Positions 5,586 through 29,170 of a DNA stretch of 29,170 nt are shown piece by piece. Position 1 is the stretch's first letter; every line of letters starts with the position of its first letter. A program made the translations under genes and the position numbers. Location of the stretch: positions 137,429 through 166,598 of the IMG/VR virus record IMGVR_UViG_3300031787_000010. One strand, 5' to 3'. The DNA is from a virus. Taxonomy: Duplodnaviria; Heunggongvirae; Uroviricota; Caudoviricetes. Below the pieces are notes generated by a model. It ran no database searches. It was not told the origin of the DNA and worked only from the letters and a program-made list of their open reading frames with translations.

Positions 5586-5587
5586 AA

Positions 5588-8500: not shown

Positions 8501-9514
8501 TGCGGCATCGGCTGCTGACTGCATATCTGCTTCCATACCAGGAATTGAAGCAGCAATACTGTCTCTGTACTGAATCTCTGCTTTTCGCATTTCTTTTGTT
8601 TCATTAAACGCAGCAAGGATACTTTCTTTTCTAGCTTGTAGAGTTTTTACAAGTTGTTCTTCTTCTTGTGTTAATTCCTTCTGTTTTCCTCTACCTTTGA
8701 ATTCACCACGTTTTTGAATTCGACGTATCTCTTCATTTACCGCATCAATTTGAGATTTTTGAACTTCTTCATTACCTCGTAATGATTTAATTCTATCGTT
8801 ACTTGCTGCAACATCTTCATTAGCAGCATTAATTTGAGATTGCATGAATCTTTCTAGATCTCTTGAAGATTCTGCTTGACTCTGTAACGCTTGATTTGCG
8901 CTCTTTATTTGCGATATTCGTTCTTCAGTTGCTTGCTTTTCACCTTGTGCTGCTTTTATTTGAGCTTGTACGTATCCTAACGATTCGTTTCTAGAATCAA
9001 TTAATGCTTGCACTCCACCTTGTTCTTGGACTTTTTGTTCTAGGGTTGCAAACGTACTATCTGCTTCTTTTAATAATGCAGCCGTGTGTTGTTTCTGTGC
9101 ATTCAACAATTCTCGTGCTTGTGCAACTGATGCTTGTGCAACTGATACCTTAGCTTTTGCTACGGCATATTCTGCTTTAGTTGTCTGAATTACATTTAAA
9201 AATTCATTAGACGCGGCACCCATCGAACGCTTGAGTCTACTTGCTTGCGTCGATTGCTCTTGAAGTGATTGTTTAGTTGCATCTAACTGTTTAGTAGCCG
9301 TGGCTACCTCATCACCGAACTGCTTAAGTGCGCTCTTAATAGTATTTGCAGTACTACTTAATTCTTTTAATGAGGAAGATGTTTTTGTAGCAGAATCTGA
9401 CGCACCCTTAAGATTAACCTTTCCGGCATCTTCAGATAACTTTTTTAAACTTGCTGTAAGCGAAGCAATCGTACTAGATAATTCTTCGGTGTTTACCGTA
9501 GTATCTTCCGCCAT
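5588..9514 (-). CDS. Tail tape measure protein
   Basis: 1308 aa; long N-terminal Ala/Gln/Glu/Lys coiled coil and Ala/Gly-rich helical middle. Trp recurs every 18 aa near the C-terminus (WFASLPEK/WFTSLPEK/WFTSLPEM). Positioned between the chaperone genes and baseplate genes. Confidence 0.85.
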   Translation of the reverse strand: MAEDTTVNTEELSSTIASLTASLKKLSEDAGKVNLKGASDSATKTSSSLKELSSTANTIKSALKQFGDEVATATKQLDATKQSLQEQSTQASRLKRSMGAASNEFLNVIQTTKAEYAVAKAKVSVAQASVAQARELLNAQKQHTAALLKEADSTFATLEQKVQEQGGVQALIDSRNESLGYVQAQIKAAQGEKQATEERISQIKSANQALQSQAESSRDLERFMQSQINAANEDVAASNDRIKSLRGNEEVQKSQIDAVNEEIRRIQKRGEFKGRGKQKELTQEEEQLVKTLQARKESILAAFNETKEMRKAEIQYRDSIAASIPGMEADMQSAADAAGAYESAIAQNNNTLTRENLRRLDLIQSIGGMESEAQQISEGLQELEAINNDYQSEIDNLTDKLQQQAGEVLQSTAAENNLQKALEDRIAEEETVRKEAANTLASGIAKSMNALAGTLQTLGNALGNLVATVRQTQQQFGLSAGSAAKLKFENLVASVKSFAGTFTSLGKQAGVTTEQIQEAQAAFQSEFGGVLTSGAAADIARQAKEMGVGAGELAKARRVFMTQTMGDTGAAKKAQDQFVSEFAKKGLTSKDAMAAIGQNSELLARNGTRFAVSFARAAADAKKIGVDLGKIDQVGDNIIGDFEGFLEKQAELGAMGFGFDSSRLAEVAESGDTGALMEELRSQLASQGKDLTKLRRSEQLALSQAFGISMEELQRLGAPKGTEGSGEATLSPEQLQKDANGFLSRLVNLGEAQALVFTGIATTLGFIAKGLGTSTAQNIISKFIKLPGTGAAGTAATSAAGTAATSAAGTAATQTTFLQGLRTAITSPLQSIRTAIAAPGRVTGSIMQGAGSVAKSLISPVSKGVKLGGSALSGIFGAAEGFMTARQQGKSGTEAAGSGLVQGGLAAVGTALGAMGGPLGMMVGGFIGNTLGKSINKYFPGVAHVFGQQISGFISMFTPIKEAFGMVWKSLSPVKDAFMSMFAVFSGPGGETSETAKKLGKAFEVVGSVIGMIVLRPLQLLAVVLRVFSGGLEITFRGLAVITKLLSGDFSGAKEAVGKLWDSVKSLFSDIGKMMVDFFFGPIKKFFPDFWALVTEKFNSVVDWFASLPEKITAGLSSIGDWFTSLPEKISTAFDTAVTWFTSLPEMIWNGITGAFTRIFDWIKEKISSLNPVNAVRSVASKLNPMNWFGDDVVSRSGYGERTLVTPSGAIALNNRDNVVAYADDMVSDAVNTGVRFLSFGALGRDANKQKTETTPSVSVDLTKLEAKLDQVVNAIGRMNVEVDGQKIGKILVGRTDASTTVGLMRRG

Positions 9515-14095: not shown

Positions 14096-14716
14096 TTATT
14101 TTAAATCATCTATTTTGATTAATATCATAGATCGATATGGTTCAGACGTATCTTCATCAATACAATATATAGGGTTTAAATAAAATGGATTTATTTCCAT
14201 ATTAATTTGTCTAAAATCAGAGTCTAAAATATCTTTATTTTCTATAAGATTCCTTCTACTACTGGTTAGCAAGTATGTACTTCCACTATTTTTTATGTTC
14301 TCTAGGGACTTTTTTATATTCTCATAAGAAAGATGTATAAAACAATCTCGCACTATAACTAAATCCTTTTTAGGTAAAGGATCTTCTGTAATATCTAAAT
14401 GTAGAAATTCATGCTGTGGATAATTTAGTCTGTTGTCATTGACGAATACTTCGGCAATGTCCGCTCCGACGTATTCGATTCCCGTCAAATTGACTTCTTT
14501 CATCCAATGAAAGTCACCACACGGTATGTCTAGAATTGATTTGATATTAAATGTATCAAATAATTTTGGCAATGCATTTCTTAAAGGTTTTGTAGATTCT
14601 AATGTACTACCACCACCACTTCGAGTTTCTATGCATCCCCACCCATTTGCCGTTGGATTCATAGCATGTACAGCGTGTATTATAATCTCAAATTCGTGTT
14701 TAAGTTTTTCGTTCAT
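14096..14716 (-). CDS. Class I SAM-dependent methyltransferase
   Basis: W...ETRSGGGST, SILDIPCGDFHWM (motif I), YVGADI, DLVIVRDCFIHL. Start moved from 14767 to ATG 14716, which forms an ATGA overlap with the upstream stop. Confidence 0.85.
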   Translation of the reverse strand: MNEKLKHEFEIIIHAVHAMNPTANGWGCIETRSGGGSTLESTKPLRNALPKLFDTFNIKSILDIPCGDFHWMKEVNLTGIEYVGADIAEVFVNDNRLNYPQHEFLHLDITEDPLPKKDLVIVRDCFIHLSYENIKKSLENIKNSGSTYLLTSSRRNLIENKDILDSDFRQINMEINPFYLNPIYCIDEDTSEPYRSMILIKIDDLK

Positions 14717-15243
14717 GCAAAACTCCAATGCATGAATAGTTGAACAACATGCTGGTGTGGTTCGCAAATTAAATCATCACGCCAATGTGTCATTGTTGTT
14801 CCTAACATCATACCACCATCACCTCGACCAATATTCAAAGGAACTTGATTATTTGTCTTATCAATACACCACAATGGCCATTCCTTATCTAAACTATTAA
14901 ATAGCGTAATAGACATAGTGTAATCAAGACCTTGACGATCAACGTGTTTGTGTAAAGTTCCACCATTATAATAAATGCGTCCAAACGAATTAGCGGGAGT
15001 CATTTTAACTCCCAACTCGTCTTGCAATCTGTCTGTTAATGATCGCAATGCGGCCTCAAACTCTGGATGGTTTCCACCATACGAATTATCATAAAACTTT
15101 TGGTCACCACCTTCATAAACTAAACGATCTGTAGCTTTCATGTCATACATCAACTGAGCAAAGTCGTCGCACTGCTGGTGTGTCAGTACGTCTTTAATGT
15201 ATGCATACCCATGTCGAGCAAAAAATTCTGATTGGTTGTTCAT
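14713..15243 (-). CDS. 2-oxoglutarate/Fe(II)-dependent oxygenase-like protein
   Basis: 176 aa; GYAYIKDVL N-terminus, RIYYNGGTLHKHVDR (HxD), THWR (distal His), QLFMHW. Double-stranded beta-helix oxygenase family common in phages; substrate unknown. Confidence 0.75.
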   Translation of the reverse strand: MNNQSEFFARHGYAYIKDVLTHQQCDDFAQLMYDMKATDRLVYEGGDQKFYDNSYGGNHPEFEAALRSLTDRLQDELGVKMTPANSFGRIYYNGGTLHKHVDRQGLDYTMSITLFNSLDKEWPLWCIDKTNNQVPLNIGRGDGGMMLGTTMTHWRDDLICEPHQHVVQLFMHWSFA

Positions 15244-16796
15244 AACTGTGATCCTCTGTTTTTTTGTATAATATAATCTTCCAATATAACGGCGTCCATC
15301 TCTTTACTATCTAGAACTGTGAGTGCTTCTTTATACGTATTCAAAATTGGTTTTCCTGCCACATTGAACGAAGTATTTAATAATACACCTATTCCAGTTT
15401 TATTATGCATTTCTGTTAATAAATTATATAAAAATTCATTTTGTTTTTTAGTTACAGTTTGTACTCTCGCTGTACCATCCACGTGCACTATTGCTTCTAG
15501 TTTATTTTTATATTCATCTTTTACTCTTGGACAAAAACTCATCCAACGGCTTTCAGTATTCCATTCAAAATATTTGTTAACATCTTCTAGACGGACCACG
15601 GGAGCGAAGGGACGATAATATTCTCTACCTTTTACTTTAGCATTCAATATATCTTTTATTCCAGTAATAGCAGGATTACACAATATACTTCTATTTCCTA
15701 GTGCTCTTGGACCATGTTCACATCTATCTCGTACCACACCTACAATTTTACCAGATATAATATAGTCTGCTAATTTAGCGATGTCAAGTACTTGTGCCGA
15801 TCGTTCGTGTGCAATTCTTATTAATTCATGTCTATCCCATACTACGGGCCCAGCATATGTACAATCAATTGGTTCTGTTGGTTTGATAGTAGATGCTAAT
15901 AATCCAACCGCCAACCCACAATCATTTGGATTAGGTGGAACAAATACGTTTCTAGTTCTAGCAAGTTTGGTATTATTTAATATATTAAGCCCACACCCAC
16001 CAACTAAAATTAAGGGTAATGAAGGGTATTCCTTTAAAAATGGCGTTATCTCTTCTTCAAAAAGTTGCTCAAAGACAAATTGATTTGAAGCAGCTAAATC
16101 TTTAGCGTCTTGGCCAGTGAATCTAAATTCCTCTGGAATGTCAAGAACCTTCCTTATTGTAGTCACCGTTTCCGGTATTTTCCCATCATCCCCGCTATTA
16201 TATATAGTATGTAATTTATTGACGAATTCTTCCGTGGCGTTTCCGTAGTTTGCAAACCCCATAATTTTTCCGGCGTACACCAAGTTTCCCCAAAACGGTT
16301 CTTCCTTTCGTATATCTTCAATATAATGTGCAACCAATCCATATGGAACAGCTAAATCTCTTTTACCAGAATATATTTTTGTAATACCCGCGCGCTTATC
16401 ACCTATAAACACATTGAAAAATCCTTCATCTGAACCACCATCAGCTGATACTATTAACGCATTACTATATGGGGATTGGTATAATCCAGAGTATGCGTGA
16501 GCTGTGTGGTGTGGTAACCATGTGTATTTTTTAGCGGGAAATATTTTATAGTATTCTTGGTGCACGGAATTATATATTACGCTTTCATATTCCGTTACTC
16601 CATATTTTTGATTAAAGTAGTTTTTTATTTCGTGAATCACTGCTATATTATATGGCTCTCTTATGTTATAGTAAAACCATAATGCGCAATTTTTTATTGA
16701 AGTAAATCTTTCTACTTCCACTACTTCTAAAAGTTTGTCATCTTTTGATATAGCTATTGTTGCATTATGAGAACCAAACATTCCTATATTAAACAT
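15240..16796 (-). CDS. O-carbamoyltransferase (NodU/CmcH/TobZ family), copy 1
   Basis: HHTAHA, DGG, GKIMG, GGCGLN, EHGPRALGNRSIL, RPFAP, HVDGTARVQTV, LLNTSFN. Start moved to ATG 16796 (MFNIGMFGSHNA), which aligns with the N-terminus of the paralog. Confidence 0.92.
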   Translation of the reverse strand: MFNIGMFGSHNATIAISKDDKLLEVVEVERFTSIKNCALWFYYNIREPYNIAVIHEIKNYFNQKYGVTEYESVIYNSVHQEYYKIFPAKKYTWLPHHTAHAYSGLYQSPYSNALIVSADGGSDEGFFNVFIGDKRAGITKIYSGKRDLAVPYGLVAHYIEDIRKEEPFWGNLVYAGKIMGFANYGNATEEFVNKLHTIYNSGDDGKIPETVTTIRKVLDIPEEFRFTGQDAKDLAASNQFVFEQLFEEEITPFLKEYPSLPLILVGGCGLNILNNTKLARTRNVFVPPNPNDCGLAVGLLASTIKPTEPIDCTYAGPVVWDRHELIRIAHERSAQVLDIAKLADYIISGKIVGVVRDRCEHGPRALGNRSILCNPAITGIKDILNAKVKGREYYRPFAPVVRLEDVNKYFEWNTESRWMSFCPRVKDEYKNKLEAIVHVDGTARVQTVTKKQNEFLYNLLTEMHNKTGIGVLLNTSFNVAGKPILNTYKEALTVLDSKEMDAVILEDYIIQKNRGSQL

Positions 16797-17571
16797 ATTT
16801 TCGTAAAACCTTATTGTGAAATTGTATGTACTCTTCCGTACTACTGATTCTAAATCTATACGCAAAATACTTTTCATTTGCTATTATGTCATCGACGTAA
16901 TCTACTAACGGGCCACCGTTATCGCCTAAACTTGTAGCGGATGTTTTTACATCTTGATGTACTTCGTCCCAGACGGCATAATTTAATTTATTAAATAGTA
17001 TTACTCCCACACCAAGATCTTCCATAGATAACGGATACGGTAAAGATAAATATTCTTCTTTATTGTTTACTAATTGTTGTACACAATCTTTTGATAGATA
17101 ATTAAAACTTCCTCCGCAAAAATAATACTCATTGTTGTACATATTTCGTGCACCATCATATTGTTTATCTTTTCTTTCCAGTGAATCTAGAAATTTGTGC
17201 ATCTTTTTAATATCAAGGTAAGTCGTATTACAAATTCGAACTATATAATCAAATTCTAAATTATTAAGACACCACTCATATGCTATGATAAGTTTTTGAT
17301 TACGTGGATCTGTAAGAGGATTGCTTACTACATCTTGTACCCCACACACAAGAATATTATTACCGTGGTTATCATACATAATCGCAGAACCCTTGGCGGG
17401 CGTTCCACTTAAATGTGAATACGGTTTATCTTCTAAATCATAACCTCCGTAATAATGAATAACTGTTACGTCTGGGTGTTTTACTCTTGCCCATGTACTT
17501 TTTGCTAACGCATCTATTGCATTATATTCAAAATGCCACGTTGATTGGTTTAGTACTATAATTTTAGTCAT
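16789..17571 (-). CDS. GT31 (beta-1,3-galactosyltransferase/Fringe)-like glycosyltransferase, divergent
   Basis: KLIIAYEWCLNNLEFDYIVRICNTTY...YDG...FCGGSFNYLSKDCVQQL...EDLGVG follows the GT31 layout (K..a..w....dy, G.g..lS, EDv.G). The DxD position reads CNT. Confidence 0.5.
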   Translation of the reverse strand: MTKIIVLNQSTWHFEYNAIDALAKSTWARVKHPDVTVIHYYGGYDLEDKPYSHLSGTPAKGSAIMYDNHGNNILVCGVQDVVSNPLTDPRNQKLIIAYEWCLNNLEFDYIVRICNTTYLDIKKMHKFLDSLERKDKQYDGARNMYNNEYYFCGGSFNYLSKDCVQQLVNNKEEYLSLPYPLSMEDLGVGVILFNKLNYAVWDEVHQDVKTSATSLGDNGGPLVDYVDDIIANEKYFAYRFRISSTEEYIQFHNKVLRKYV

Positions 17572-17572
17572 A

Positions 17573-19132
17573 TTAATCCTTTTTTATATAATAATTTTCC
17601 AAAATCAACCCATCCATTTCCACATTTTCTAGCATCCAGACAGCATCTCTGTATGTATTCAGAATTGGTTTTCCTGCGATATTGAAGGATGTATTTATTA
17701 ATACACCGACTCCTGAAAGTCGTTTTACTTCACCTAATAGGTGATACAGAAAAGAATTTTGCATTTCTGTTACTGTTTGCAATCTAGCCGTGTTATCGAT
17801 ATGTGTGACAGATGGTAAAATTGATCGGTATTCCGTTTTTACTCTTGGGCTAAATGTCATCCAACGTGCTTCACCTTCCCAATCAAAATAAGTATTTGCA
17901 TCTTCCAATCTAGTTACGGGTGCAAACGGACGATAATATTCTCTATGTTTGACTTTTGCATTTAGTATATCTTTCATACCTACAGTTGGCATGCAAAGAA
18001 TACTTCTGTTTCCCAATGCCCTAGCCCCGTGTTCAGAACGACCACGAACAATTCCAATAATTTTTCCAGAAATTAAATCTTCTGCTAATTTTGTGAAATC
18101 TACTTCGGTTGCATTATATTTGTTTACGTACTCATGTAATAAATGTCTATCCCAAACTTCAGGTCCGATATAAGTGGAATCAAATGCATCCGATGGCTTT
18201 AAAAACCCTAACATAAATCCTAAACTCAATCCTCTATCGTCTGGATTTGGCGTTACATGCGTCTTTGTTAATTTATTTACTTGTGTGTTATTCAGTACAT
18301 TTAAAGCACATCCACCAGTTAAACATAATTTGTCATCACTACCTATGATATCTTTGTATGATAACTTTTCAAACAATTGCTCAAACGCATATTGAGAAGT
18401 TCTGACTACATCCACTTCTAACTGGCCAGTTAACTCATCTGGATAACCTAATTTTTTATAATTGTTATACTTGTCCTCGTAAGTAGAATGATGTCCTTTG
18501 TAGTATTCTAAAAAATTATTTATGTTATTGTGTAAAATTTTACCGTATGCTGACAATCCCATCAACTTACCCGAATGTACCAGATATCCTTGAAATCTAT
18601 CTTGTTTGCTCAATGAACTACAATAAAATCCAATTTGTGCATATTTTTCTCCGATATTATAATCAGGTTCCGTTCTATATAATGTGACTCCATTCTGTCT
18701 AGTTGCTTTATAAAAATTAAAACACCCATCATTACCACCACCATCAAAACTAATAATTGTTGCTTCTTTTAAATTAGTTTGATAAAATGCATTATACGCG
18801 TGTCCTTCTTGGTGACCCATCTCTATTAAATTTTTTGCGTTAAAAATATCTAAAACACTTCCGTGTGCAGACCAATATCCACCCGTGAGTACTTCCAAAT
18901 CTGTAGGGTTACATATTAGATTTTGGTATTTGTCTGCACCATATTTTATTTTGAAGTATAGAAGTATTTCTTTTACAGCATGTATAGGATTATGAGTGGT
19001 AGGTAGATACCACGTTAAACTTATATTTTTAACGTTTAGCCATCTTTCCAATTCCACAACTTCTAGAATTTCATCATCTCGACTTATCGTAAATGACGCA
19101 TTGTGTCCTGTGTATATTGATAAATTAAACAT
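17573..19132 (-). CDS. O-carbamoyltransferase (NodU/CmcH/TobZ family), copy 2
   Basis: 519 aa; HQEGHA, FDGGG, GKLMGLSAYG, LTGGCALN, EHGARALGNRSIL, RPFAP, HIDNTARLQTV, LINTSFN. Confidence 0.92.
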   Translation of the reverse strand: MFNLSIYTGHNASFTISRDDEILEVVELERWLNVKNISLTWYLPTTHNPIHAVKEILLYFKIKYGADKYQNLICNPTDLEVLTGGYWSAHGSVLDIFNAKNLIEMGHQEGHAYNAFYQTNLKEATIISFDGGGNDGCFNFYKATRQNGVTLYRTEPDYNIGEKYAQIGFYCSSLSKQDRFQGYLVHSGKLMGLSAYGKILHNNINNFLEYYKGHHSTYEDKYNNYKKLGYPDELTGQLEVDVVRTSQYAFEQLFEKLSYKDIIGSDDKLCLTGGCALNVLNNTQVNKLTKTHVTPNPDDRGLSLGFMLGFLKPSDAFDSTYIGPEVWDRHLLHEYVNKYNATEVDFTKLAEDLISGKIIGIVRGRSEHGARALGNRSILCMPTVGMKDILNAKVKHREYYRPFAPVTRLEDANTYFDWEGEARWMTFSPRVKTEYRSILPSVTHIDNTARLQTVTEMQNSFLYHLLGEVKRLSGVGVLINTSFNIAGKPILNTYRDAVWMLENVEMDGLILENYYIKKD

Positions 19133-20070: not shown

Positions 20071-22842
20071 TTAGATCCGTCTAAATTTAATTGACAAGTA
20101 ATCCTCCAATTCTTCTAATGAACGAGAATATGAATTGGAAGTATTAAAAAGTATATCATTTATAATTTCAACAGACTTGTCTGTTATTTCATTATGATTT
20201 GTTTTTCTGTATACGGTGCCGTCCAAGTCATGTATATTATAATTATGCCATACTGTCGCCTCAGCGGGTAATTTTATATCCCATCCTTTTAAATAAGATA
20301 AGAACGTTTGTGCTTCTTCTTCACCTTTAGATTTTATTTGCATAGGTACTTGTATATCTCCAGTCCATTCGATTGGTGCAAATATAAATCCTGCACCTAT
20401 CCATTTGTTGTCGAATATTTCGTACTTATCCATTGCTACTAAATTTTTTGTAACTAATCTGTTATCTATTGGATTAACATTTTCAACATCCATATGTCCA
20501 CTAATAACTAATGGGGCATTAGTTTTTATAGATAAAAAGTTTTTTTCCGTATCGGTAAGTTCGAATCCATTTGGATATGTAGAGAATACCACTTTTTTGT
20601 TTGGCATACTTCTATATTGATTTATTAGTATACCATCCCAATTTTGTTTAAATCTACTGTGTGCGTCAATCTGCAAAAAGAAATCCTCATCAGTTATTAA
20701 TTCTTGCTTTATTCTTTCACGCGCCCAAACAACTCCCAGAGAATCTTCATCTGGAGTAAATAATATTTTCATGTTTGGAAAATTTTCATTAAGTAATTCT
20801 TTATGATATTCTTCGTTATCTTGAAGATGGACACCTACCATAATTCGTGATGAGTCTTGTGCCGTTTCATATAAATTTCTTAATGTAGTTAATAACTGGC
20901 GGTCGCAATAGCTAGCTACAGAAACAAATATTTTTTTAGGTTTAAAATCCCAGGCGTCTTTAAATTCTCGTGCCCAATTACCTATGAATCTTTTTGTTTC
21001 AGTAGAATCACATTGCTCATCTTGATTAAACGTACTAGTATTGATATAAAAGTTTTTATCTTCTATATCTTTCATATATCCTCGAAGTCTGTATATATAC
21101 GAGGAAAGAGTGGAATAATCGTTACCTATAAACTTTATAGATCTTGTACATATGAGTTGTTCTATTATCGGAATAAAATTATAGTGCACATTTTCTAGTT
21201 TTGCTAAATGTGCAATATCTTCGTAATAGTGTAACTGATAGTGTTGGGCAAGTTTGTCAAAAAATGATTTATCGGTATGGTCTGTTGCAATATACAATGT
21301 GGAACCATCTGGTATTATATCTTTGATATTATCATAGATTTGCTCCGCTGTAATGAACAAATGCTTATACTGAAAATCATTTCTTCTTATGTGGATTGCA
21401 TAGTATTTTCTGTCTCCCAACACTTCTATTGCCCGCCAACCCAATTCCATTAATTTAGGAGTGTAATGAACGTGCCGTGCTATTAATTTTTTAAGTTCTA
21501 CGTCAAATGTCGTATATATGGTTTGATAAAAATTTCCTAACAATTTACCATCAAAAAATAAACACTCATTGTGACCAAGTAGTTCAATCATATCAGTTAC
21601 AGAACGTCCATGTTTAAATGATTCGTCTGGTAGTGATTCTGTAAAATTTAAAACGTGAAATTCTGGTTCTGTTATGGTTTTACTAATTTCTGCAACTGCT
21701 TCGAACGTAGGAGTAATATTTTTCAGTCTACAGAAATCAAAAAAAGACATTGTTTTTATTCCTAAATCAGACATATCAAAAAAATCTTCTAGCCCAAACG
21801 TATCTTTTAGCAAATACATATTATACTTTGGAGGTAGTACTAATGTCTTATTCGTTAAATATGCTATACAAACCGCCAGTTCTAATGACATTCGTATGTT
21901 GTTAAATCCACCCGGCCACGGTTTTAAAATAATATATCCGGTTTTACCAGTGTAATTGTTAAATATATTAGAAAAATTCCATTTTAAATGGTACAGATAA
22001 TCCGTTCTTTCTTGTGCAATATTAGATAACAAAAGTTCATCTAATTTGTTTCTTGCTCTATTTACGTCTATTTGCATATTCTGATTGTGTGTGTAATCTT
22101 GTTTGAAAAATAAAGAATTATTATTCGCATCAAATATTTCATTCGGGAAATGTGCGATAAGACTGACTTCATTACTGTCATTTTCTTTCCATGCCGTACA
22201 GAATCCAAAGTCCTCTACGTATTGAATTTTTAAATTGTTCTTTTTAACTGCGTAATCCAATCCCCACATTTCAGATTCCCATCGTTTCGTTTCACGTTTA
22301 ATTTGCTCTGAACTGGTAATATAATCGTCTATTATTTTTTTTAATGTACCAAACTTAATACAAAATGGATACATCACACCAAACCCGTCTCTATCATTTT
22401 CAATTTTCCAATTCTGTAACGGTGCGTAGTGAATAAATCTTTGTGCTATAATTTCGTTATATTTAGGAACAAATTCTACTGGATGTAAAAATATCATATC
22501 TGGGTCTAGAAATAATAAATTATCTTCGTCTTTAAAAGAAGAGTTATCGCATAACCATTTTATCGACATGAATTTATTTGGTATAGCTCCCCACCAATAT
22601 TTTTCACCACGTTTTGATTCTGATTCTAGATTTTCCCATTCTGTAGCATAATCTGGTAAATCTATTACTACTACATCCGTGTCTGTGTATTCATCCAACG
22701 GTCTATTTCTACCCATCGGATCTGCACATCGTAATAACACAAGTTTACCTGATTGCTTTACTTTCTTCCGTGACCAGTTTAATAAACGACACTGCCACGA
22801 TTGATACTCACTATTACTAGTTGGTACTATGATATAATCCAT
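20071..22842 (-). CDS. Three-domain glycosyltransferase: GT96 (peptidyl-Ser alpha-galactosyltransferase, SGT1)/GT95-like + GDP-fucose O-fucosyltransferase-like + GT60-like
   Basis: aa ~1-230: YQSWQ..L.WS.KK.KQSGKL..L.CAD, NK..SIKWL, LFLDPDMIF, WESEMWG. aa ~300-590: GGFNNIR...E.A..IA.L..KTLVLPP, YAIHIRRNDF, LYIATD, IEQLIC...FIG...STLSSYI.RLR. aa ~636-923: IFVSVASYCD, SLGVVWAR, LQIDAHSRF..NWD, GAGFIF, GEE, WH. Confidence 0.78.
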   Translation of the reverse strand: MDYIIVPTSNSEYQSWQCRLLNWSRKKVKQSGKLVLLRCADPMGRNRPLDEYTDTDVVVIDLPDYATEWENLESESKRGEKYWWGAIPNKFMSIKWLCDNSSFKDEDNLLFLDPDMIFLHPVEFVPKYNEIIAQRFIHYAPLQNWKIENDRDGFGVMYPFCIKFGTLKKIIDDYITSSEQIKRETKRWESEMWGLDYAVKKNNLKIQYVEDFGFCTAWKENDSNEVSLIAHFPNEIFDANNNSLFFKQDYTHNQNMQIDVNRARNKLDELLLSNIAQERTDYLYHLKWNFSNIFNNYTGKTGYIILKPWPGGFNNIRMSLELAVCIAYLTNKTLVLPPKYNMYLLKDTFGLEDFFDMSDLGIKTMSFFDFCRLKNITPTFEAVAEISKTITEPEFHVLNFTESLPDESFKHGRSVTDMIELLGHNECLFFDGKLLGNFYQTIYTTFDVELKKLIARHVHYTPKLMELGWRAIEVLGDRKYYAIHIRRNDFQYKHLFITAEQIYDNIKDIIPDGSTLYIATDHTDKSFFDKLAQHYQLHYYEDIAHLAKLENVHYNFIPIIEQLICTRSIKFIGNDYSTLSSYIYRLRGYMKDIEDKNFYINTSTFNQDEQCDSTETKRFIGNWAREFKDAWDFKPKKIFVSVASYCDRQLLTTLRNLYETAQDSSRIMVGVHLQDNEEYHKELLNENFPNMKILFTPDEDSLGVVWARERIKQELITDEDFFLQIDAHSRFKQNWDGILINQYRSMPNKKVVFSTYPNGFELTDTEKNFLSIKTNAPLVISGHMDVENVNPIDNRLVTKNLVAMDKYEIFDNKWIGAGFIFAPIEWTGDIQVPMQIKSKGEEEAQTFLSYLKGWDIKLPAEATVWHNYNIHDLDGTVYRKTNHNEITDKSVEIINDILFNTSNSYSRSLEELEDYLSIKFRRI

Positions 22843-23788
22843 ATTGTTCCCGTATCCAGTTAAATGTACGAGTCATTCCTTCTTCTAATGTAATAGCAGG
22901 TTCCCAATTTAACAATGCCTTTACTTTGTCATTATGTGAGTTTCTTCCACGTACTCCCAACGGTCCTTCAATATGTTTACGTTGGAGTTTGACACCAGCT
23001 GCATTTTCAATAATCGTAATTAATTCATTAACGGACACCATTCGGTCTGATCCAATATTAAATGCCGATTGATGTGGACTATCCATTACACGAATTGTTC
23101 CTTCGACTGCATCATCAATATACAAAAACGACCGTGTTTGCTCACCATCACCCCACACTTCAATCGTATCAGAGTTAGTGTGTAAAGCATGTGCGACTTT
23201 TCTACAGAGCGCGGCCGGTGCTTTTTCTCGTCCACCTTGCCACGTACCTACTGGACCGTAGACATTGTGGTATCGGACAATACGGGTTTCAATTCCAAAA
23301 TCTTCGGTGAAATGACGACACATGCGTTCCATAAACAGCTTTTCCCAACCATACCCATCTTCGGGATCGGCTGGGTATTCTGTACCTTCAATTAAAGGTT
23401 CTGGTTCTGTCGTGTTTTGTTTATACACAGGATAGACACAAGCGGTCGATGCGAAGAGAAACTTCTTTGCTCCGTTTAGGTGTGCTGCTTTTAATGTATT
23501 GGTGTCTGGAATAATGGATAACATACACAATGTCTTATTGTGTTCGATAAATCCCATTCCACCCATATCACACGCTAAATGATAGACTTCATCAATACCT
23601 TGCGTGGCGTTTAGAGCAACATCGTAATCCGTTAAGTCTCCGACGATGTTTTCTGCTGACTCGGTAATTTGATACCATTTATCAAACGGCTTTTTATCAA
23701 TTGCTCGTACTGTATATATTTCTGCTAATTTCTTTACTATATGTCCGGCAATAAACCCACCGGCTCCCGTAACCAATATTGTTTTCAT
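22817..23788 (-). CDS. GDP-D-mannose 3,5-epimerase (extended SDR)
   Basis: GAGGFIA, LACDMGGMGFI, YGWEK (YxxxK), GTWQGGREKAPAALCRK, WGDGEQTRSFLYIDD, GVRGRNS are characteristic of GME. Start at ATG 23788 is preferred because the AGAGG SD lies 8 nt upstream. Confidence 0.88.
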   Translation of the reverse strand: MKTILVTGAGGFIAGHIVKKLAEIYTVRAIDKKPFDKWYQITESAENIVGDLTDYDVALNATQGIDEVYHLACDMGGMGFIEHNKTLCMLSIIPDTNTLKAAHLNGAKKFLFASTACVYPVYKQNTTEPEPLIEGTEYPADPEDGYGWEKLFMERMCRHFTEDFGIETRIVRYHNVYGPVGTWQGGREKAPAALCRKVAHALHTNSDTIEVWGDGEQTRSFLYIDDAVEGTIRVMDSPHQSAFNIGSDRMVSVNELITIIENAAGVKLQRKHIEGPLGVRGRNSHNDKVKALLNWEPAITLEEGMTRTFNWIREQYGLYHSTN

Positions 23789-23882
23789 AACCATTTCCTC
23801 TTAATTATTTTTCAGTATTACAATTTAGTATATTCGTACTGTACTATAATACATATTTACGTTTTTACCTCACCAATTGATT

Positions 23883-25949
23883 TTACTCACACGAACTGTT
23901 CGATCCGCCGCAATCAATATAATTTGTACACGATAATACATATTCTGTACCATTACAAGTGTACAAATCTTGGCCCACACATTGAGTAGCTCCAAAAGTA
24001 CATGTTGCTGGTGATGGTGTTGGTGAAGGTGTTTCTGGTGAAGGTGTTACCGGTGAAGGTGTTACCGGTGAAGGCGTTGGTGCTACGGGTGGGCATGGTG
24101 TATTTTGACATTGCCCAGCACAGCAATATGCACACGGTGAACAATCTTGAGCATCAACACATGGTATTGTAGGACATTGTATTTCAGGCGAAGGCGTCAC
24201 TGGCGAAGGTGTTTCCGGCGAAGGCGTCACTGGCGAAGGTGTTACTGGTGAAGGCGTCACTGGCGAAGGTGTTACTGGTGAAGGCGTCACTGGCGAAGGT
24301 GTTACTGGTGAAGGCGTCACTGGCGAAGGTGTTACTGGTGAAGGCGTCACTGGCGAAGGTGTTACTGGTGAAGGCGTCACTGGCGAAGGTGTTACTGGTG
24401 AAGGCGTCACTGGTGAAGGCGTCACCGGCGAAGGCGTCACCGGTGAAGGCGTCACCGGCGAAGGTGTTACTGGTGAAGGCGTTACGGGCGCAGGCGTTTT
24501 TGTTGCAGACGGCGTAATACTTGGAGTAGTAGTAATACTTGGCGTAATAGATGGTGTAATAGAAGGCGTTCTAGTAATACTTGGTGTTCTAGTAATAGAC
24601 GGCGTAGTGGTAATACTTGGAGTAATACTTGGTGTTCTAGTAATAGACGGCGTAGTGGTAATACTTGGAGTAATACTTGGTGTTCTAGTAATAGAAGGCG
24701 TAGCGGTAATACTTGGCGTTCTAGTAATAGAAGGTGTAGTGGTAATAGACGGCGTTGTCGTAATACTTGGCGTAATACTTGGCGTAGTTGTTATTGATGG
24801 AGTTACTGTAGTACTTGGTGTTTTAGTAATTGAAGGGGTAGCAGTGACACTCGGTGTTACTGATGGCGTTACTACTCCTTGTGTACACGGCCAACACGTT
24901 CCGAGAGTAAGTGCTTCAGCAACTGCTGTACATCCACCACCAGTAGGATCTGGATAATTATTACAGCTTGGAACTGTAGTACACTCACAAAATACATAAT
25001 TAATTGTGGTAGCAGAAGGTGTTACCGATGGAGTTGGTGTATTAGTTGGTGTCGTAGTTACCGATGGGGTTGTTGTTATTGAGGGCGTTACCGTTGGGGT
25101 AACAGTTCTAGTAGTTGTTATCGACGGCGTTATTGATGGAGTTGCTGTTATTGATGGAGTTGCTGTTATTGATGGTGTAGTTGTTATAGAAGGTGTAAGA
25201 GTAGGCGTTGGTGTTACAGATTGATTTGTTGTTTGTGTTATTGATGGAGTTACTGTTCTAGTTGGAGTTATAGACGGTGTTGTGGTAATAGATGGTGTTG
25301 TGGTAATAGATGGTGTTCGTGTTAAACTTGGTGTAACAGTTATTGACGGTGTAATTGAAGGTGTAGATGTTATAGTTGGAGTAACCGTTATTGACGGTGT
25401 TGTTGTGATAGAAGGTGTTACTGTCACAGACGGTGTAATAGATGGTGTTCTAGTAATACTAGGCGTAGTAGTAACAGAAGGTGTGGTCGTAATAGACGGC
25501 GTAGTTGTGATACTCGGTGTTCTAGTGATAGAAGGCGTTCTGGTAACTGATGGTGTAGTTGTTATAGAAGGTGTTACAGTTACACTTGGGGTAACCGACG
25601 GCGTAGTTGTTACTGACGGTGTTACTGTCATCGTCGGGGTAGCTGTCGGTGTTTTTGTTGGGGTTATGGATGGAGAGGGAATTGGATAACATAAAAAATA
25701 ATTTTCTCTACCAGAATGCGGCGGTACTGATGGGTATGTGTCATAGGCATCCGTGACCGTAGTTAACGCATTATAATAACCAGGCGGACAACTTGTAGCT
25801 TGAATTCCAGGAGTACCTTTTGGTCCTATAACACCAACCAACGCACGTGCTGCTACAACAGATGGATTGTTTACTAATGCGTAAGCAGAACTAGCTGTTT
25901 GTGCGAAGGAACCCGTAGAAGGAATACCGAATGGAAAAAATACAGCCAC
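23883..25949 (-). CDS. Mucin/extensin-like Thr-Pro-Ser repeat protein with Cys-rich modules; probable virion surface or fibre protein
   Basis: 688 aa; GTG start with AGGAG SD 6 nt upstream. Two long blocks of TPS(I/V)T(T/R/A/V) hexapeptides, 20 tandem (V/E)TPSP pentapeptides, and three Cys-rich modules. The virion role is inferred. Confidence 0.8.
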   Translation of the reverse strand: MAVFFPFGIPSTGSFAQTASSAYALVNNPSVVAARALVGVIGPKGTPGIQATSCPPGYYNALTTVTDAYDTYPSVPPHSGRENYFLCYPIPSPSITPTKTPTATPTMTVTPSVTTTPSVTPSVTVTPSITTTPSVTRTPSITRTPSITTTPSITTTPSVTTTPSITRTPSITPSVTVTPSITTTPSITVTPTITSTPSITPSITVTPSLTRTPSITTTPSITTTPSITPTRTVTPSITQTTNQSVTPTPTLTPSITTTPSITATPSITATPSITPSITTTRTVTPTVTPSITTTPSVTTTPTNTPTPSVTPSATTINYVFCECTTVPSCNNYPDPTGGGCTAVAEALTLGTCWPCTQGVVTPSVTPSVTATPSITKTPSTTVTPSITTTPSITPSITTTPSITTTPSITRTPSITATPSITRTPSITPSITTTPSITRTPSITPSITTTPSITRTPSITRTPSITPSITPSITTTPSITPSATKTPAPVTPSPVTPSPVTPSPVTPSPVTPSPVTPSPVTPSPVTPSPVTPSPVTPSPVTPSPVTPSPVTPSPVTPSPVTPSPVTPSPVTPSPVTPSPETPSPVTPSPEIQCPTIPCVDAQDCSPCAYCCAGQCQNTPCPPVAPTPSPVTPSPVTPSPETPSPTPSPATCTFGATQCVGQDLYTCNGTEYVLSCTNYIDCGGSNSSCE
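24187..24486. repeat. 20 x 15-bp tandem repeat encoding (V/E)TPSP, containing 6 perfect 30-bp copies (24221-24400)
   Basis: The unit aaggcgtcactggcgaaggtgttactggtg occurs exactly at 24221, 24251, 24281, 24311, 24341 and 24371; flanking units differ at wobble positions. Confidence 0.95.
24574..24695. repeat. Perfect 48-bp tandem duplication (about 2.5 copies) within the hexapeptide repeat region
   Basis: gtaatacttggtgttctagtaatagacggcgtagtggtaatacttgga at 24574 and 24622, with a partial copy at 24670. Confidence 0.9.
25010..25680. repeat. Degenerate ~18-bp coding repeats (TPSITT/TPSVTV/TPSITR)
   Basis: The protein-level hexapeptide repeat has diverged synonymous positions; a second block lies at about 24500-24875. 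Confidence 0.9.
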
Positions 25950-25962: not shown

Positions 25963-26157
25963 TTATGTTGGAACAACAATTAACGTTGGTGAAGCATCTA
26001 CTTCTTTATACGGGTCACCAGGCAAACCTAGTAAATTTTCAGCGTAAGCGGCAAGTGCCGCGGTGGTAGGTGTATTTGCCGATGCAATAGTTACACTTGC
26101 CGAAACTGCGAAAGAAGTACTAATTGGTAATCCTAATGGTATAAATTGTATACTCAT
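25963..26157 (-). CDS. Small hypothetical protein, probably virion-associated
   Basis: 64 aa; FIPLGLPISTSFAVSAS motif shared with both neighbours; tight packing. Confidence 0.7.
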   Translation of the reverse strand: MSIQFIPLGLPISTSFAVSASVTIASANTPTTAALAAYAENLLGLPGDPYKEVDASPTLIVVPT

Positions 26158-26166: not shown

Positions 26167-26415
26167 CTAGTTAAAATTGCAAACTTCTTTTAACGAAGGA
26201 TTTGCTCTTAACTGTAAATACTGTTCATAGGTTATTTTACAAATTCCAGGAACTCCAAGATCGCCTTTTGATCCAGAAGTACCCGACTCTGCGAAAGAAG
26301 CTGTAAATACGTACATCAAGTATTGTGCATTATTTGCGTAAGACGAAGATAAGGCAAATGATGAGGTGTATAAACTTCCAGAAGCGTATGGATAAAAAGC
26401 TGAGCTAGTAGTCAT
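26167..26415 (-). CDS. Small hypothetical protein, probably virion-associated, with a short Gly-X-Y stretch
   Basis: 82 aa; FYPYASGSLYTSSFALSSSYA...TASFA...GSKGDLGVPG. Confidence 0.7.
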   Translation of the reverse strand: MTTSSAFYPYASGSLYTSSFALSSSYANNAQYLMYVFTASFAESGTSGSKGDLGVPGICKITYEQYLQLRANPSLKEVCNFN

Positions 26416-26418: not shown

Positions 26419-27306
26419 TTAATCTTCTAGTGAAAATACATGTAAGTTTACAGTTGGAGTTATAGGAGAACCCGAAGATGATACGTTCTGCATATAATAA
26501 TAAACAGAATTTATTCCTTCCATTTTTGTTGGATCTGTGATTAATTCCGATAAGTCGTTTCCCATATTTTGTAAATTAGCTCCTATGATTTTAGGAGTAA
26601 AATAAACTATATTACTTCCAGAGATAACAGTATCTATTATTAATCCAATTGATTCCGATGGTTCAGTTGCAAATAATCTATTTCTTTCACTAACATTATA
26701 TATACTACCGCTATTATTATACATTCTAAATCTAACCATGTGGCTAGAGTTTGCTAATGAAGCACTTACCATTATATAAGTTTTTGGTACAGTTGGTGAC
26801 GTAATACTGGTAAATGTACCACTTGCATACGCTAACGCCGCAATAGTCGAAGAAGGTGTTATTTGTATTAATCTACGATTATTTTCTGTGTACGATGTAT
26901 TAATCGCAGGAGTTATAGATGTATCTTCTATTAAAAGCCTATTAATTTTAAAGGAGGAACCCGAAGGCGTGCATCTATAATACGTTAATGGTGTAGTTGC
27001 CGAATTCGTATGTCCTATTGACGCTGGGTTTATCGTATATACTGTATTACTTAAACTCATACTGTAGTCACCGACAAGTGCTACGGTTGGTGGTACGGTT
27101 GAACCAAATATACGGGAAATTTCAGTAGAATCGTCTCTACTCTGAATTGTGTCATAGATTCGTAATCTAGCAGGTTGTGTAGATTCTATACTTAATATAA
27201 GAAAAGAACCCCCAAGGGCAACCGAACCACTACCGACCGTATCGGTAACTGTAATAACGTCTCTGGTAATTTTTGCCCCGGCTTGGACCTGTTCTTTTAA
27301 TCCCAT
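26419..27306 (-). CDS. Hypothetical beta-rich protein with an internal duplication, probably virion-associated
   Basis: 295 aa, Ser/Thr/Ile-rich; two copies of an R(L/F)R(I/M)Y...E.(S/N)R.F...P motif. Confidence 0.7.
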   Translation of the reverse strand: MGLKEQVQAGAKITRDVITVTDTVGSGSVALGGSFLILSIESTQPARLRIYDTIQSRDDSTEISRIFGSTVPPTVALVGDYSMSLSNTVYTINPASIGHTNSATTPLTYYRCTPSGSSFKINRLLIEDTSITPAINTSYTENNRRLIQITPSSTIAALAYASGTFTSITSPTVPKTYIMVSASLANSSHMVRFRMYNNSGSIYNVSERNRLFATEPSESIGLIIDTVISGSNIVYFTPKIIGANLQNMGNDLSELITDPTKMEGINSVYYYMQNVSSSGSPITPTVNLHVFSLED

Positions 27307-27362: not shown

Positions 27363-29170
27363 TTAGGATTCCTTCCTCAATTCACTCTGATAAAAATTAA
27401 ATCTATTGTGTTCTATAGGTGACGCAAGGAAAATTCCACTAGTTAATTCGTTTTTTCTGGTTTGTTGGAATATATGACTCATCCATGTTTGTTCGTATGG
27501 TCTAGCCCACTTTGTGTTTAAAAACATTTTTTGATTACCTTCTTTACTGACTATTTGTGGCCAATTACTGTAATAAATCTGCCCTTTAATATAAGGAGTT
27601 TCATCCACAATGTGAATTGTATCAAAAACAGTTTTTGGAGCATTTGGATCAGTTCCGTGTTCAGGTAACTTATTATAGTTAGGCCAAACTTCATTTCTAA
27701 CTGATTGTGGTACATTATACCAAGCCCACTGCACACTATTATCACCGTAAAATTCGGAAAAAGACATTTTAAAGAAATCAAATTTTTCTTTTACCATAAT
27801 TTTAACGAGCTTTTCATATAAGTTTGGTATATGTGATCTAAATCCATTTCTACAGTTCTTACCAATAAAAGACTCGTTGTTAATATGCATATCGTCTTCA
27901 AAAAACATATAAAAATCAGCGTCGGATTCGCTAAAATGTTCTGCTATAAATTGTCTACCACCACATACACCTAAATTCTCTCTATGAATTTCCTCGAACC
28001 CATACAGTTCACATAACTTATCGTATTGTTCAAATAAACTAGTATCCGTAGAGTTATTTACTAATATTTTTCTACATCGTGTAAACATAGTGTCATCAGC
28101 CGATTGTATGGACTTCACGACAGATTCAAATTGTTCTGTAGAATTAAATCCAAGAACATACAGATTTACTTTAGCAGTTTTTGGTGTTAGTTCTTTCGGC
28201 GGTAAATTTTTTATAAGTTCGTCTACGTCCTTTAATTTTTCAAAAAACGGCCATACCAAACCGTCGCCTGAAAGTTCAAATCTATATATTGTTTCTGGAT
28301 ATAGATGTGCCATTACAGCAAATATACTTTCTTCCGTACCCATAAAATTACTTTCTAGGGTTTGTCGTAAAAGATTATAATAATTACTATTTGCCGTTGC
28401 TATTGAAGTTTTGGAACCACCAAAAAATCCACCACGACACACATATTTTAAATGTTGTGTTTTGGCATATCTTTCAATATCAGTACGTGGAAAGCCATGA
28501 ACTTCATATCCATCCTCATACGGATATGATAAGAATATAAACGCATCAACTTCTTCGGTTAATTTTGGTAGATTTTCTAAAACGACATCGTGATGAAAAT
28601 ATCCTGGATGTACTGTCGTGGAGATGCCTGCATCTAACCAATAAAAATAATTTGTATTAAATGGATTACTGATTGATGCATCGTTCAGTAAAAACATCTT
28701 GCTCATAACTACCGGATTATAAAACTCTAAATTTGCTTGTGGAGAGTTTTCTAACCATGCTGCCTGTTTCTTCCAATTTTCAGTATTTCTAATTTCTTGT
28801 ACTTTTTCGTAGAAGGGAAACCAAGTTTTTAGTTCTTCTAACTCCATAACTTTGACATGAGTATTTTTTCTTGATCTATGCTTCCAAACAAATTCTTCAT
28901 CTTCTTTTGCTACATAAATGTATAAATTTGAAGGAGTTTTGAGTAACTCTGCAAATTTGTCAAGATAATAAGAATACGGACGTTTAAAATCATCACCGAG
29001 TGACCCTCTACCTAAATTCCAAAGAGCGGTTACTATGGTCGTATCAGAATTTTCTAAAGTTTTGAATTCTTCAACAGTATTGTCTACTTGTTGTGAAGAT
29101 TCTTGCTCAGTTTTAGGAATCTCGTCTATCGTGAATCGTAAAACTTTATCTCCGAGATTTATAACGAAAG
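27363..29170 (-). CDS. HtrL/YibB (WlaTC)-family glycosyltransferase fused to a C-terminal GT-A-like domain; 5' truncated
   Basis: The frame stays open from 28847 to the window end (…DTTIVTALWNLGRGSLGDDFKRPYSYYLDKFAELLK…). HtrL motifs: SKMFLLNDAS..NPFNT.YFYWLDAGI, RGGFFGGSK, MGTEESIF. The second domain has NLGVCGGRQ...DFYMFFEDD. Confidence 0.8.
   Translation of the reverse strand, partial: FVINLGDKVLRFTIDEIPKTEQESSQQVDNTVEEFKTLENSDTTIVTALWNLGRGSLGDDFKRPYSYYLDKFAELLKTPSNLYIYVAKEDEEFVWKHRSRKNTHVKVMELEELKTWFPFYEKVQEIRNTENWKKQAAWLENSPQANLEFYNPVVMSKMFLLNDASISNPFNTNYFYWLDAGISTTVHPGYFHHDVVLENLPKLTEEVDAFIFLSYPYEDGYEVHGFPRTDIERYAKTQHLKYVCRGGFFGGSKTSIATANSNYYNLLRQTLESNFMGTEESIFAVMAHLYPETIYRFELSGDGLVWPFFEKLKDVDELIKNLPPKELTPKTAKVNLYVLGFNSTEQFESVVKSIQSADDTMFTRCRKILVNNSTDTSLFEQYDKLCELYGFEEIHRENLGVCGGRQFIAEHFSESDADFYMFFEDDMHINNESFIGKNCRNGFRSHIPNLYEKLVKIMVKEKFDFFKMSFSEFYGDNSVQWAWYNVPQSVRNEVWPNYNKLPEHGTDPNAPKTVFDTIHIVDETPYIKGQIYYSNWPQIVSKEGNQKMFLNTKWARPYEQTWMSHIFQQTRKNELTSGIFLASPIEHNRFNFYQSELRKES

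Follow-up and report, generated by a model that had tools for sequence, protein, structure and literature searches.

A soluble phage protein with three glycosyltransferase domains and a candidate Pro/Thr/Ser repeat acceptor encoded in the same freshwater tailed-phage genome

P0001 is a 923-residue protein encoded in the final 29 kb (29,170 nt, positions 137,429 to 166,598; here called the window) of the 166.6-kb IMG/VR virus record IMGVR_UViG_3300031787_000010, which is estimated to be 89% complete and, because the window holds a tape-measure protein, a T4-type baseplate hub and a VanY-domain tail protein, comes from a large tailed phage. In this single polypeptide, Pfam finds three non-overlapping glycosyltransferase (GT) domains, each above its curated cut-off: an HPAT/SGT1-like domain (GT95/GT96), an O-fucosyltransferase (O-FucT) domain and a GT60-type domain. 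From the domain identities, the solubility of the protein, the structure of its operon, and the recurrence of the gene set and of nearby Pro/Thr-repeat genes in relatives, we consider it somewhat probable that P0001 carries out cytoplasmic O-glycosylation of the phage’s own mucin- or extensin-like Pro/Thr/Ser repeat proteins during infection. A first-pass annotation, made from the letters alone, had described three sequential glycosyltransferase motif sets in one 923-residue open reading frame (ORF) with no signal anchor, and this description holds: the per-domain family assignments all stand, and P0001 is devoid of a membrane anchor, its highest 19-residue Kyte-Doolittle mean being 1.34. Since it is predicted to be soluble, with no membrane segment, P0001 should act in the cytoplasm of the bacterium, the site that the annotation had proposed. 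The domain boundaries suggested there (about residues 230/300 and 590/636) were roughly right; the first beta strand of the N-terminal domain begins at residue 3 of the model, and its helical tail extends to about residue 282.

For the N-terminal domain (the N-domain), the Pfam HPAT family (PF23452) matches residues 4 to 223, at 27.6 bits in the whole protein and at 31.1 bits when residues 1 to 295 are scanned alone (cut-off, 23.9). Twenty-two of 30 homologues match the same family individually (best E value, 2e-8), and none matches another Pfam family. In an alignment of 31 sequences that are 42-64% identical to P0001, the invariant or nearly invariant columns of this domain are Y13, Q14, W16, Q17, Q30, G32, D41, P88, N89, K90, W96, D113, P114, D115, M116, W188, E191 and M192, and it is with these columns that the motifs likened by the annotation to those of SGT1 (YQSWQ, KQSGKL, CAD, NK..WL, LDPDMI and WESEMWG) coincide. 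D113-P114-D115 is a DxD motif, the element that binds metal and nucleotide sugar, and it is invariant in the 31 phage homologues as well as in bacterial stand-alone forms. The AlphaFold model of residues 1 to 295, made with 30 homologues, has a predicted local distance difference test score (pLDDT) of 90.1 and a predicted template-modeling (TM) score of 0.89. Compared by Foldseek with the Swiss-Prot models, it finds SGT1 of Arabidopsis (E 1e-14) and of Chlamydomonas (E 4e-14) first, and ranks 1 through 9 are filled by both SGT1 entries and all of the HPAT entries (HPAT1-3, RDN1/2, NOD3 and PLENTY), with E values from 1e-14 to 6e-12 (3e-13 to 6e-12 for the HPATs) and TM scores of 0.66-0.73. The next matches are of GT6 and GT8 type, at E 5e-9 or worse and TM scores of about 0.5. 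The possibility that a GT8 or other generic GT-A family would be the better fit thus failed, SGT1 and HPAT fitting far better, and the predicted fold places the N-domain with SGT1 and HPAT, apart from generic GT-A domains; by the same scores SGT1 and HPAT cannot be told apart. Among solved structures only GT6 enzymes match the model, at that lower level (E 5e-9 or worse), which would be expected of a structure library that holds no GT95 or GT96 structure.

By sequence the N-domain is distant from its plant relatives, at only 15-18% identity; a search of PDB sequences with its profile gave no significant match, and two profile searches for relatives returned bacterial and phage stand-alone forms, with no HPAT or SGT1 of a named eukaryote among them. 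In the fold comparison, alignment to the plant proteins begins only at residue 29-69, and therefore the phage domain lacks their membrane anchor. The type II membrane anchor and Golgi location that go with GT95 and GT96 are absent from P0001, but this reflects the eukaryotic setting of those enzymes and not their catalysis. The annotation had described the family of the N-domain as known mainly from green lineages and protists; it is not limited to them, as a GT95/96-like domain is also encoded as a stand-alone gene in bacterial contigs.

Of the three assignments, that of the N-domain had been the weakest. The O-FucT family (PF10250) matches residues 303 to 590 at 99.2 bits (cut-off, 31.5), with the full model (1-326) covered, and its motifs G-F-N-N-x-R and H484-x-R486-R-x-D489 are invariant, H484, R486 and D489 being residues of catalytic type. 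Against all PDB sequences, the profile of this domain finds POFUT2 only (E 1e-7), over some 130 residues that make up the donor-binding half. PF10250 includes non-protein transferases too, and no dedicated gene for GDP-fucose synthesis was recognised in the Pfam scans of the window ORFs. For domain 3, the GT60 or “GlcNAc” family (PF11397) scores 109 bits against a cut-off of 21, the best stretch being residues 694-872; D726-x-H728 and H866 are invariant in the same 31 sequences and, by analogy with GT27 and GT60 enzymes, would form a metal triad. PDB sequence searches with this domain found no match. The product of the next gene, a second GT60, is a paralogue (27% identity, E 1e-18).

Domain 3 is also where a quite different substrate might be suspected. 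Residues 649-726 give a sub-threshold match to the TAGT family (PF20691; E 2e-4, 21.8 bits, cut-off 27.5), an SNF2 helicase is encoded 8 kb downstream, and phage glycosyltransferases are often presumed to act on DNA (PMC12619734). P0001 might then glycosylate modified bases of the phage DNA as a protection from restriction, in the manner of the T4 glucosyltransferases or the TET-associated glycosyltransferases. We regard this as very improbable: the 89%-complete genome has neither a thymidylate-synthase-type hydroxymethylase (PF00303) nor a TET/JBP oxygenase (PF12851), the TAGT match is limited to the start of domain 3, where the nucleotide is bound, while the same domain scores 109 bits for GT60, and for neither of the other domains is a relative known that acts on DNA.

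P0001 is not an isolated case. A search of 5.8 billion proteins returned at least 468 metagenomic homologues, at least 100 of them full length, whose names, where the source gives any, are “hypothetical protein” or “GlcNAc-transferase family protein”. The annotation had thought the three-domain combination undescribed; it is indeed uncharacterised, but it is not rare. Some homologues carry a fourth or fifth enzyme domain: the fusion variants add a second GT60 (as in P0003, P0005 and P0008), then a PLOD-type GT, GT2-type domains, a GT1-like domain or DUF5672, and in P0062 a complete carbamoyltransferase is fused to the GT. PLOD-type GTs are the family that acts on collagen hydroxylysine. There are also homologues of about 650 residues with no N-domain, and the N-domain occurs alone at 270-340 residues. 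The triple-GT family is populous and modular, and it is widespread in lake and marine phages. When the locus search was run with a single protein, it recovered one partial relative; run with the alignment, it recovered 78 viral loci, in which the triple GT, the second GT60, the carbamoyltransferase and the epimerase form a conserved core on a single strand. Since some of these genes are fused in relatives, the neighbouring genes in the window are tied to the same pathway as P0001. Full-text searches of a literature library turned up no account of this fusion, nor of any GT95/96-like enzyme from a phage or bacterium. Virus-encoded protein glycosylation with multi-domain GTs is of an already-known kind; what is new is the presence of a GT95/96-like domain, the fusion of three families in one protein and the prolyl 4-hydroxylase (P4H)-like partner discussed below.

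The annotation had also predicted a repetitive acceptor, and gene context supplies a concrete candidate two genes (1 kb) upstream of P0001. This protein, P0122, contains 187 Thr, 96 Ser, 139 Pro and 22 Cys and is 61% Pro+Thr+Ser; it is made of TPSITTTPSITR-type units and about 24 TPSPV units, broken by three Cys-rich islands, and at the DNA level of tandem repeats with periods of 15, 18, 30 and 48. An AGGAG Shine-Dalgarno sequence lies 6 nt ahead of its GTG start. Two relatives are encoded elsewhere in the genome. P0124, a close paralogue, shares both the repeats and the C-terminal Cys module of P0122, and at the other end of the record it adjoins a 754-residue protein with a cytidylyltransferase-like domain (G000 3-2264 and 2303-4348, L087). 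P0125, in which TPSPV runs link small beta domains to one another, including one of the InlB B-repeat type, adjoins a 1631-residue protein of no recognised family. A structural role for the repeat proteins is hinted at by gene context alone, tail genes lying 8-20 kb away. As a side observation, if the genome is circularly permuted, P0124 and the cytidylyltransferase-domain gene would directly extend the glycosylation cluster past the end of the window.

The genes around P0001 (Table 1) are co-oriented and tightly packed, with overlaps or gaps of 1-26 nt, and run downstream in the order epimerase, P0001, second GT60, carbamoyltransferase 1, GT31-like protein, carbamoyltransferase 2, P0123, methyltransferase and DUF6065. 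The 260-residue GT31/Fringe-like protein has no Pfam match and is a lead from the ESM Atlas (feature score 0.98; TM scores of 0.72-0.82 to Galactosyl_T/Fringe clusters). P0123 has 1183 homologues, and H100-x-D102...H153-x-R155 is invariant in the 49 aligned. Its model (pLDDT 96.8) has as its top solved matches the P. putida P4H, Dictyostelium PhyA (6t8m) and PHD2, with E values of 7e-10 to 1e-7 and TM scores of 0.73-0.79 to prolyl hydroxylases, and ALKBH7, OkaE, HalD and SnoN follow close behind. P0123 is a 2-oxoglutarate (2OG) oxygenase, and prolyl hydroxylation is a plausible activity for it.

The P. putida prolyl hydroxylase that P0123 matches best among solved structures was crystallised with EF-Tu, and this opens another route for a soluble, cytoplasmic enzyme such as P0001: host cytoplasmic proteins could be glycosylated for takeover or disarming, with the oxygenase hydroxylating the host protein first, in parallel with the action of the Pseudomonas P4H on EF-Tu. 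This seems to us quite improbable. Seven or more genes that handle sugars, including those for carbamoyl and methyl tailoring, imply that a bulk acceptor receives a complex glycan, as opposed to one sugar with a regulatory role; the link that recurs between the GT and Pro/Thr-repeat genes would have no explanation; and the fold match of P0123 is unspecific.

That link was assessed in 43 clusters of loci, obtained by dereplication at 90% DNA identity (21 triple-GT and 22 GT60-only, with 631 kb of flanks). A Pro/Thr-rich ORF lies in the examined flank in 23 of the 43, made up of 9 of the 21 triple-GT clusters and 14 of the 22 GT60-only clusters, and 33 of the 34 Pro/Thr-rich flank ORFs are on the GT strand. 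Their density is about 1 per 19 kb in the GT flanks against about 1 per 45 kb far from the GT in three GT genomes (G000, G001 and G002), and none was found in 125 kb of T4, S-PM2 and S-SCSM1. A relative whose GT is about 51% identical (L005) has three Pro/Thr repeat proteins 3.4 kb downstream, with APTT/TAPT repeats and Cys islands, that differ in sequence from P0122; directly upstream of its GT is a 416-residue PF13640 (P4H-type) oxygenase, and a stand-alone PLOD-type GT is also there. As the control is small, the loci are mutually related and the repeat genes of G001 are distant, we read these data as genome-level co-occurrence of the GT and Pro/Thr-repeat genes with moderate clustering, and not as strict adjacency.

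The enzyme set is not confined to phages, since stand-alone homologues of the N-domain occur in bacterial contigs (L109 and L110), which are of high GC content. In L110 (GCA_028278345.1), the homologue is near an O-FucT-like gene, a PF13640 oxygenase, GT61, GT92, sulfotransferases and an exosortase; in L109 it is found with a GT60 gene, epimerases, sulfotransferases and an MBOAT protein. Opposite a called gene in L110 there is a 340-codon frame, open at both ends (5589-6608, minus strand), that encodes a twin-arginine-type signal and, after it, TSSPTT/TSPT repeats; this frame sits between the GT61 gene and the PF13640 oxygenase, O-FucT-like and stand-alone HPAT-like genes. From its sequence, L110 resembles a bacterial version of the system, whose repeat protein could be modified in the cytoplasm and then exit by the twin-arginine translocation route. 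In the locus of a relative, L007, the GT gene has near it a 1413-residue fibre with long G-x-T collagen-like repeats (1500-5741) instead of a Pro/Thr-repeat protein. Since PLOD-type GT domains are fused to some members of the family, the acceptors of certain lineages may be collagen-like.

Several points weigh against the proposal that P0001 modifies repeat proteins of the phage. The density control, which is phylogenetically uncorrected, comprises 125 kb from three cultured phages and the distant parts of three GT genomes, and the loci compared are related to one another. Twelve of the 21 triple-GT clusters have no Pro/Thr-rich ORF in the examined flank, and in the complete genome G001 the four Pro/Thr-rich ORFs are 34-125 kb from the GT. 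The acceptor cannot be read from family resemblance, as PF10250 and the GT-A families also hold glycan-building enzymes. P0122 and its relatives match no virion family in Pfam-type scans, and their place in the particle is a guess. For P0123, the non-prolyl 2OG oxygenases trail the prolyl matches by only about two orders of E value, and PF13640, the classical P4H family, was not found in the 89%-complete genome.

The main alternative, though we find it doubtful, is that P0001 acts with its neighbours to make or alter a non-protein glycan, for example lipopolysaccharide, capsule, exopolysaccharide or glycolipid of the host, as an auxiliary or host-takeover function, with the repeat genes as bystanders. 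The epimerase, the two NodU-type carbamoyltransferases and the methyltransferase are typical glycan-tailoring genes, and a cytidylyltransferase-domain protein is encoded at the other end of the record. PHROGs places the GT60 family and the carbamoyltransferases in its category “moron, auxiliary metabolic gene and host takeover”; the sulfotransferases, MBOAT protein and epimerases of L109 resemble an exopolysaccharide locus; the cultured phages S-SCSM1 and XacN1 have partial gene sets with no adjoining Pro/Thr-repeat genes; and in G001 the GT and repeat genes are not adjacent. However, among the window ORFs scanned, Pfam matched no polyprenyl-phosphate initiating transferase, flippase, polymerase or ABC exporter, and P0001 itself has no membrane segment. 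The three domains, the GT31/Fringe-like protein and the PLOD-type partners are all of protein-O-glycosylation families, prolyl-hydroxylase-type oxygenases recur beside the GT, and Pro/Thr-repeat ORFs are enriched near it. Were the acceptor a polysaccharide, the finding would reduce to an unusual domain fusion.

For O-glycosylation of the repeat proteins, the acceptor, the sugars and the order of steps are what we infer, and likewise that the repeat proteins would be components of the particle. P0123 would possibly act first, hydroxylating prolines to give hydroxyproline (Hyp) sites; P0001 would glycosylate P0122 and its relatives P0124 and P0125 in the cytoplasm, ahead of particle assembly, with a donor supplied by the epimerase; the second GT60 and the GT31/Fringe-like enzyme would extend the sugars; and the carbamoyltransferases and methyltransferase would tailor them. 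Characterised members of all three families attach the first sugar to a protein side chain, the POFUT-type O-FucTs on Ser/Thr and the GT60 enzymes on Thr of mucin-like repeats or on the hydroxyproline of Skp1. Each of the three domains is similar to enzymes that initiate, and Thr, Ser and Pro are all available in the repeat unit; the placing of one first sugar per domain on different residues is therefore, by analogy, at least as likely as the stepwise, processive building of a chain that the annotation had put forward. It is a speculation, prompted by the action of POFUT2 on small Cys-rich modules, that domain 2 targets the Cys islands of P0122.

A broader version of this proposal, which we rate as unlikely, is that freshwater Bacteroidota phages and some bacteria have a cytoplasmic extensin-like pathway. 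There, a minimal prolyl hydroxylase would make Hyp in TPSP-type repeats; first sugars would be placed on Hyp/Ser by the GT95/96 domain, on Ser/Thr, possibly in Cys-rich modules, by the POFUT domain, and on Thr by the GT60 domain; and these would be extended, carbamoylated and methylated to give a mucin-like virion glycocalyx. If this is true, the “plant-specific” enzymes of Hyp/Ser O-glycosylation originate, or branch early, in prokaryotes and their viruses. Soluble, anchor-free GT95/96 domains, a P4H-like oxygenase and repeat proteins together offer a testable prokaryotic model of Hyp/Ser/Thr O-glycosylation. Should the modification of the phage’s own repeat proteins hold, many aquatic phages would wear self-made mucin-like glycoproteins, with a bearing on adsorption, particle stability, grazing and immune recognition. 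A compact soluble multi-enzyme could also serve glyco-engineering in bacteria.

Known systems resemble this one in part. In the extensin glycosylation of plants and algae, a P4H acts before SGT1 (GT96, alpha-galactose on Ser) and HPAT1-3 (GT95, beta-L-arabinofuranose on Hyp), and GT95 and GT96 are treated as plant and green-algal enzymes of the secretory pathway (Golgi) (PMC8012813, PMC5371791). Here too, the N-domain is nearest in fold to SGT1 and the HPATs, the candidate acceptor has Ser-Pro/Thr-Pro repeats, and a P4H-like oxygenase is in the operon. Unlike the plant enzymes, which are Golgi type II membrane proteins, P0001 is predicted to be soluble, is only 15-18% identical to them and has its N-domain fused to two other GT families, and the repeats of P0122 are TPSPV/TPSIT and not Ser-Pro4. 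The Skp1 pathway of Dictyostelium is the closest working analogue that we would name. This pathway, found in Dictyostelium and Toxoplasma, is cytoplasmic and consists of PhyA, Gnt1 (GT60), the two-domain PgtA, and then AgtA or Gat1. It shares with the phage system soluble cytoplasmic enzymes, a GT60 member, a PHD-type hydroxylase (here the candidate P0123) and GT domains fused in one polypeptide. However, Skp1 receives one pentasaccharide on a single Hyp, whereas the candidate here offers hundreds of repeat sites on phage proteins; the setting is prokaryotic; the Skp1 pathway has no GT95/96 or O-FucT domain; and the Skp1 family had no match among the window ORFs scanned with Pfam. The P0001 system is an analogue of the Skp1 pathway, not a member of it.

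The individual domains invite comparisons of their own. GT60 polypeptide alpha-GlcNAc-transferases of Trypanosoma cruzi and Dictyostelium start mucin-type O-GlcNAc chains and are Golgi membrane proteins. They share family GT60/PF11397 with domain 3, and their acceptors are Thr/Pro-rich mucin-like repeats; unlike them, P0001 is predicted to be soluble. POFUT2 (GT68; 4ap5, 5foe) is the only solved family that matches domain 2, in which the HxRRxD-type motif is invariant, but it is an endoplasmic reticulum enzyme that acts on folded, Cys-rich thrombospondin type 1 repeat modules, and the similarity is limited to about 130 residues. Among phages, the closest precedent, by analogy, is the virion glycosylation of the mycobacteriophages Che8, Corndog and Myrna (Freeman et al. 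2023, Cell Host Microbe 31:1216, as cited in PMC12619734), where the glycans are on the C-terminal ends of capsid and tail-tube subunits. As cited there, their phage-encoded GTs modify the phages’ own structural proteins in the bacterial cytoplasm, which is what we propose for P0001; the GT families differ, and the mycobacteriophage systems, as cited, have neither Pro/Thr-repeat carriers nor a multi-enzyme fusion. Two cultured phages hold partial gene sets. Synechococcus phage S-SCSM1 (L111, 102203-106872) has an O-FucT gene, 26.5% identical over residues 296-631, that lies between 2OG-Fe(II) oxygenase genes and has a carbamoyltransferase and further GTs close by, and the Xanthomonas jumbo phage XacN1 (L112, 219791-223508) has a GT60-like gene directly followed by one for a 765-residue carbamoyltransferase. 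Unlike P0001, these are single-domain genes with no GT95/96-like domain, and no long Pro/Thr-repeat protein adjoins them in the 25 kb examined; being cultured, both phages could be experimental entry points.

Table 1. Features of the window discussed in the text, with positions counted from the first letter of the window
Feature	Coordinates	Strand	Basis and remarks
P0001, three-domain soluble glycosyltransferase, 923 aa (amino acids)	20071..22842	-	ATG start; ORF and translation; Pfam
Domain 1 (aa 1-290), GT-A fold, HPAT/SGT1-like (GT95/GT96)	21973..22842	-	Pfam HPAT, AlphaFold, Foldseek
Domain 2 (aa 303-590), O-fucosyltransferase family PF10250	21073..21936	-	Pfam; POFUT2 profile match
Domain 3 (aa 637-923), GT60-type “GlcNAc” transferase family PF11397	20074..20934	-	Pfam; phrog_24687 glycosyltransferase
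P0122, Pro/Thr/Ser repeat protein, 688 aa, candidate acceptor	23883..25949	-	Translation; tandem repeats
NAD-dependent nucleotide-sugar epimerase/dehydratase	22817..23794	-	Pfam Epimerase 143 bits, phrog_540; 26-nt overlap with P0001 start; conserved beside the GT in relatives
Second GT60-like glycosyltransferase, 307 aa	19145..20068	-	Pfam GlcNAc 169 bits; start 2 nt past P0001 stop
Carbamoyltransferase 1 (NodU/NolO type)	17573..19132	-	Pfam Carbam_trans_N/C, phrog_1601; synteny
GT31/Fringe-like glycosyltransferase, 260 aa (lead only)	16789..17571	-	ESM Atlas
Carbamoyltransferase 2	15240..16877	-	Pfam and PHROG matches
P0123, 2OG-Fe(II) oxygenase, 176 aa, prolyl-hydroxylase-like fold	14713..15243	-	Invariant residues; fold matches
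S-adenosylmethionine-dependent methyltransferase	14096..14767	-	phrog_3382 E 2e-44; weak Pfam methyltransferase matches
DUF6065 protein, 356 aa	13004..14074	-	Pfam DUF6065 217 bits; syntenic in closest relatives L008-L010
HtrL/YibB-like protein, 494 aa (longer with 5′-open frame), putative glycosyltransferase-like, record end	27363..28847	-	Pfam HtrL_YibB 30.9 bits, cut-off 24.1

The phage is an uncultured lake phage, and the stretch occurs almost unaltered in DNA runs of lake or other freshwater samples, at least 16 of them, produced by many different studies. The only cellular-genome matches of the P0001 family are contigs from three Saprospiraceae metagenome-assembled genomes and one Bacteroidetes single-cell genome, which is a hint of the host group and not a proof. 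Against 50,697 phage records, megablast with 25 kb of the window gave no match, and tblastn with P0001 gave single-domain matches only, in S-SCSM1, XacN1 and Xoo-sp13. A promoter and terminator scan performed at chance level and is uninformative on transcription units. In four freshwater metatranscriptome runs there are exact short contigs on parts of the cluster, with P0122 covered in all four; we give these no weight, as they do not prove transcription and carry-over of DNA is possible. One such contig skips 718 nt within the P0122 repeat array (24542-25261) and others end there with loose letters, which is probably an assembly collapse of the repeats or a variation of repeat number between populations.

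The rest of the window adds a few minor observations, nearly all of its genes being on the minus strand. The 295-residue ORF at 26419-27306 (minus strand) was considered as a GT-A enzyme and rejected for lack of support, its Atlas leads being weak (0.82) and pointing, if in any direction, towards the N-terminal domains of phage fibres. It has no family match and a poor Atlas model (pLDDT 0.59); its first 128 residues are weakly like the N-terminal parts of collagen-like gp9/10-type phage fibre proteins, and it may be structural and not an enzyme. Directly upstream of P0122, two small ORFs of about 64 and 81 residues (25963-26157 and 26170-26415, minus strand) share its N-terminal pattern F-x-P-x-G/A...S-x-S-F-A-x-S/T-A/S-S, followed by a G-x-P-G stretch, and may be a paralogous family of N-terminal modules or remnants of duplication. 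At the far end of the window, a 1308-residue tape-measure protein (5588-9514, minus strand) is followed by a downstream protein of at least 1158 residues with a VanY D-Ala-D-Ala carboxypeptidase domain (3-3476, minus strand), the latter presumably a cell-wall-cutting component of the tail.

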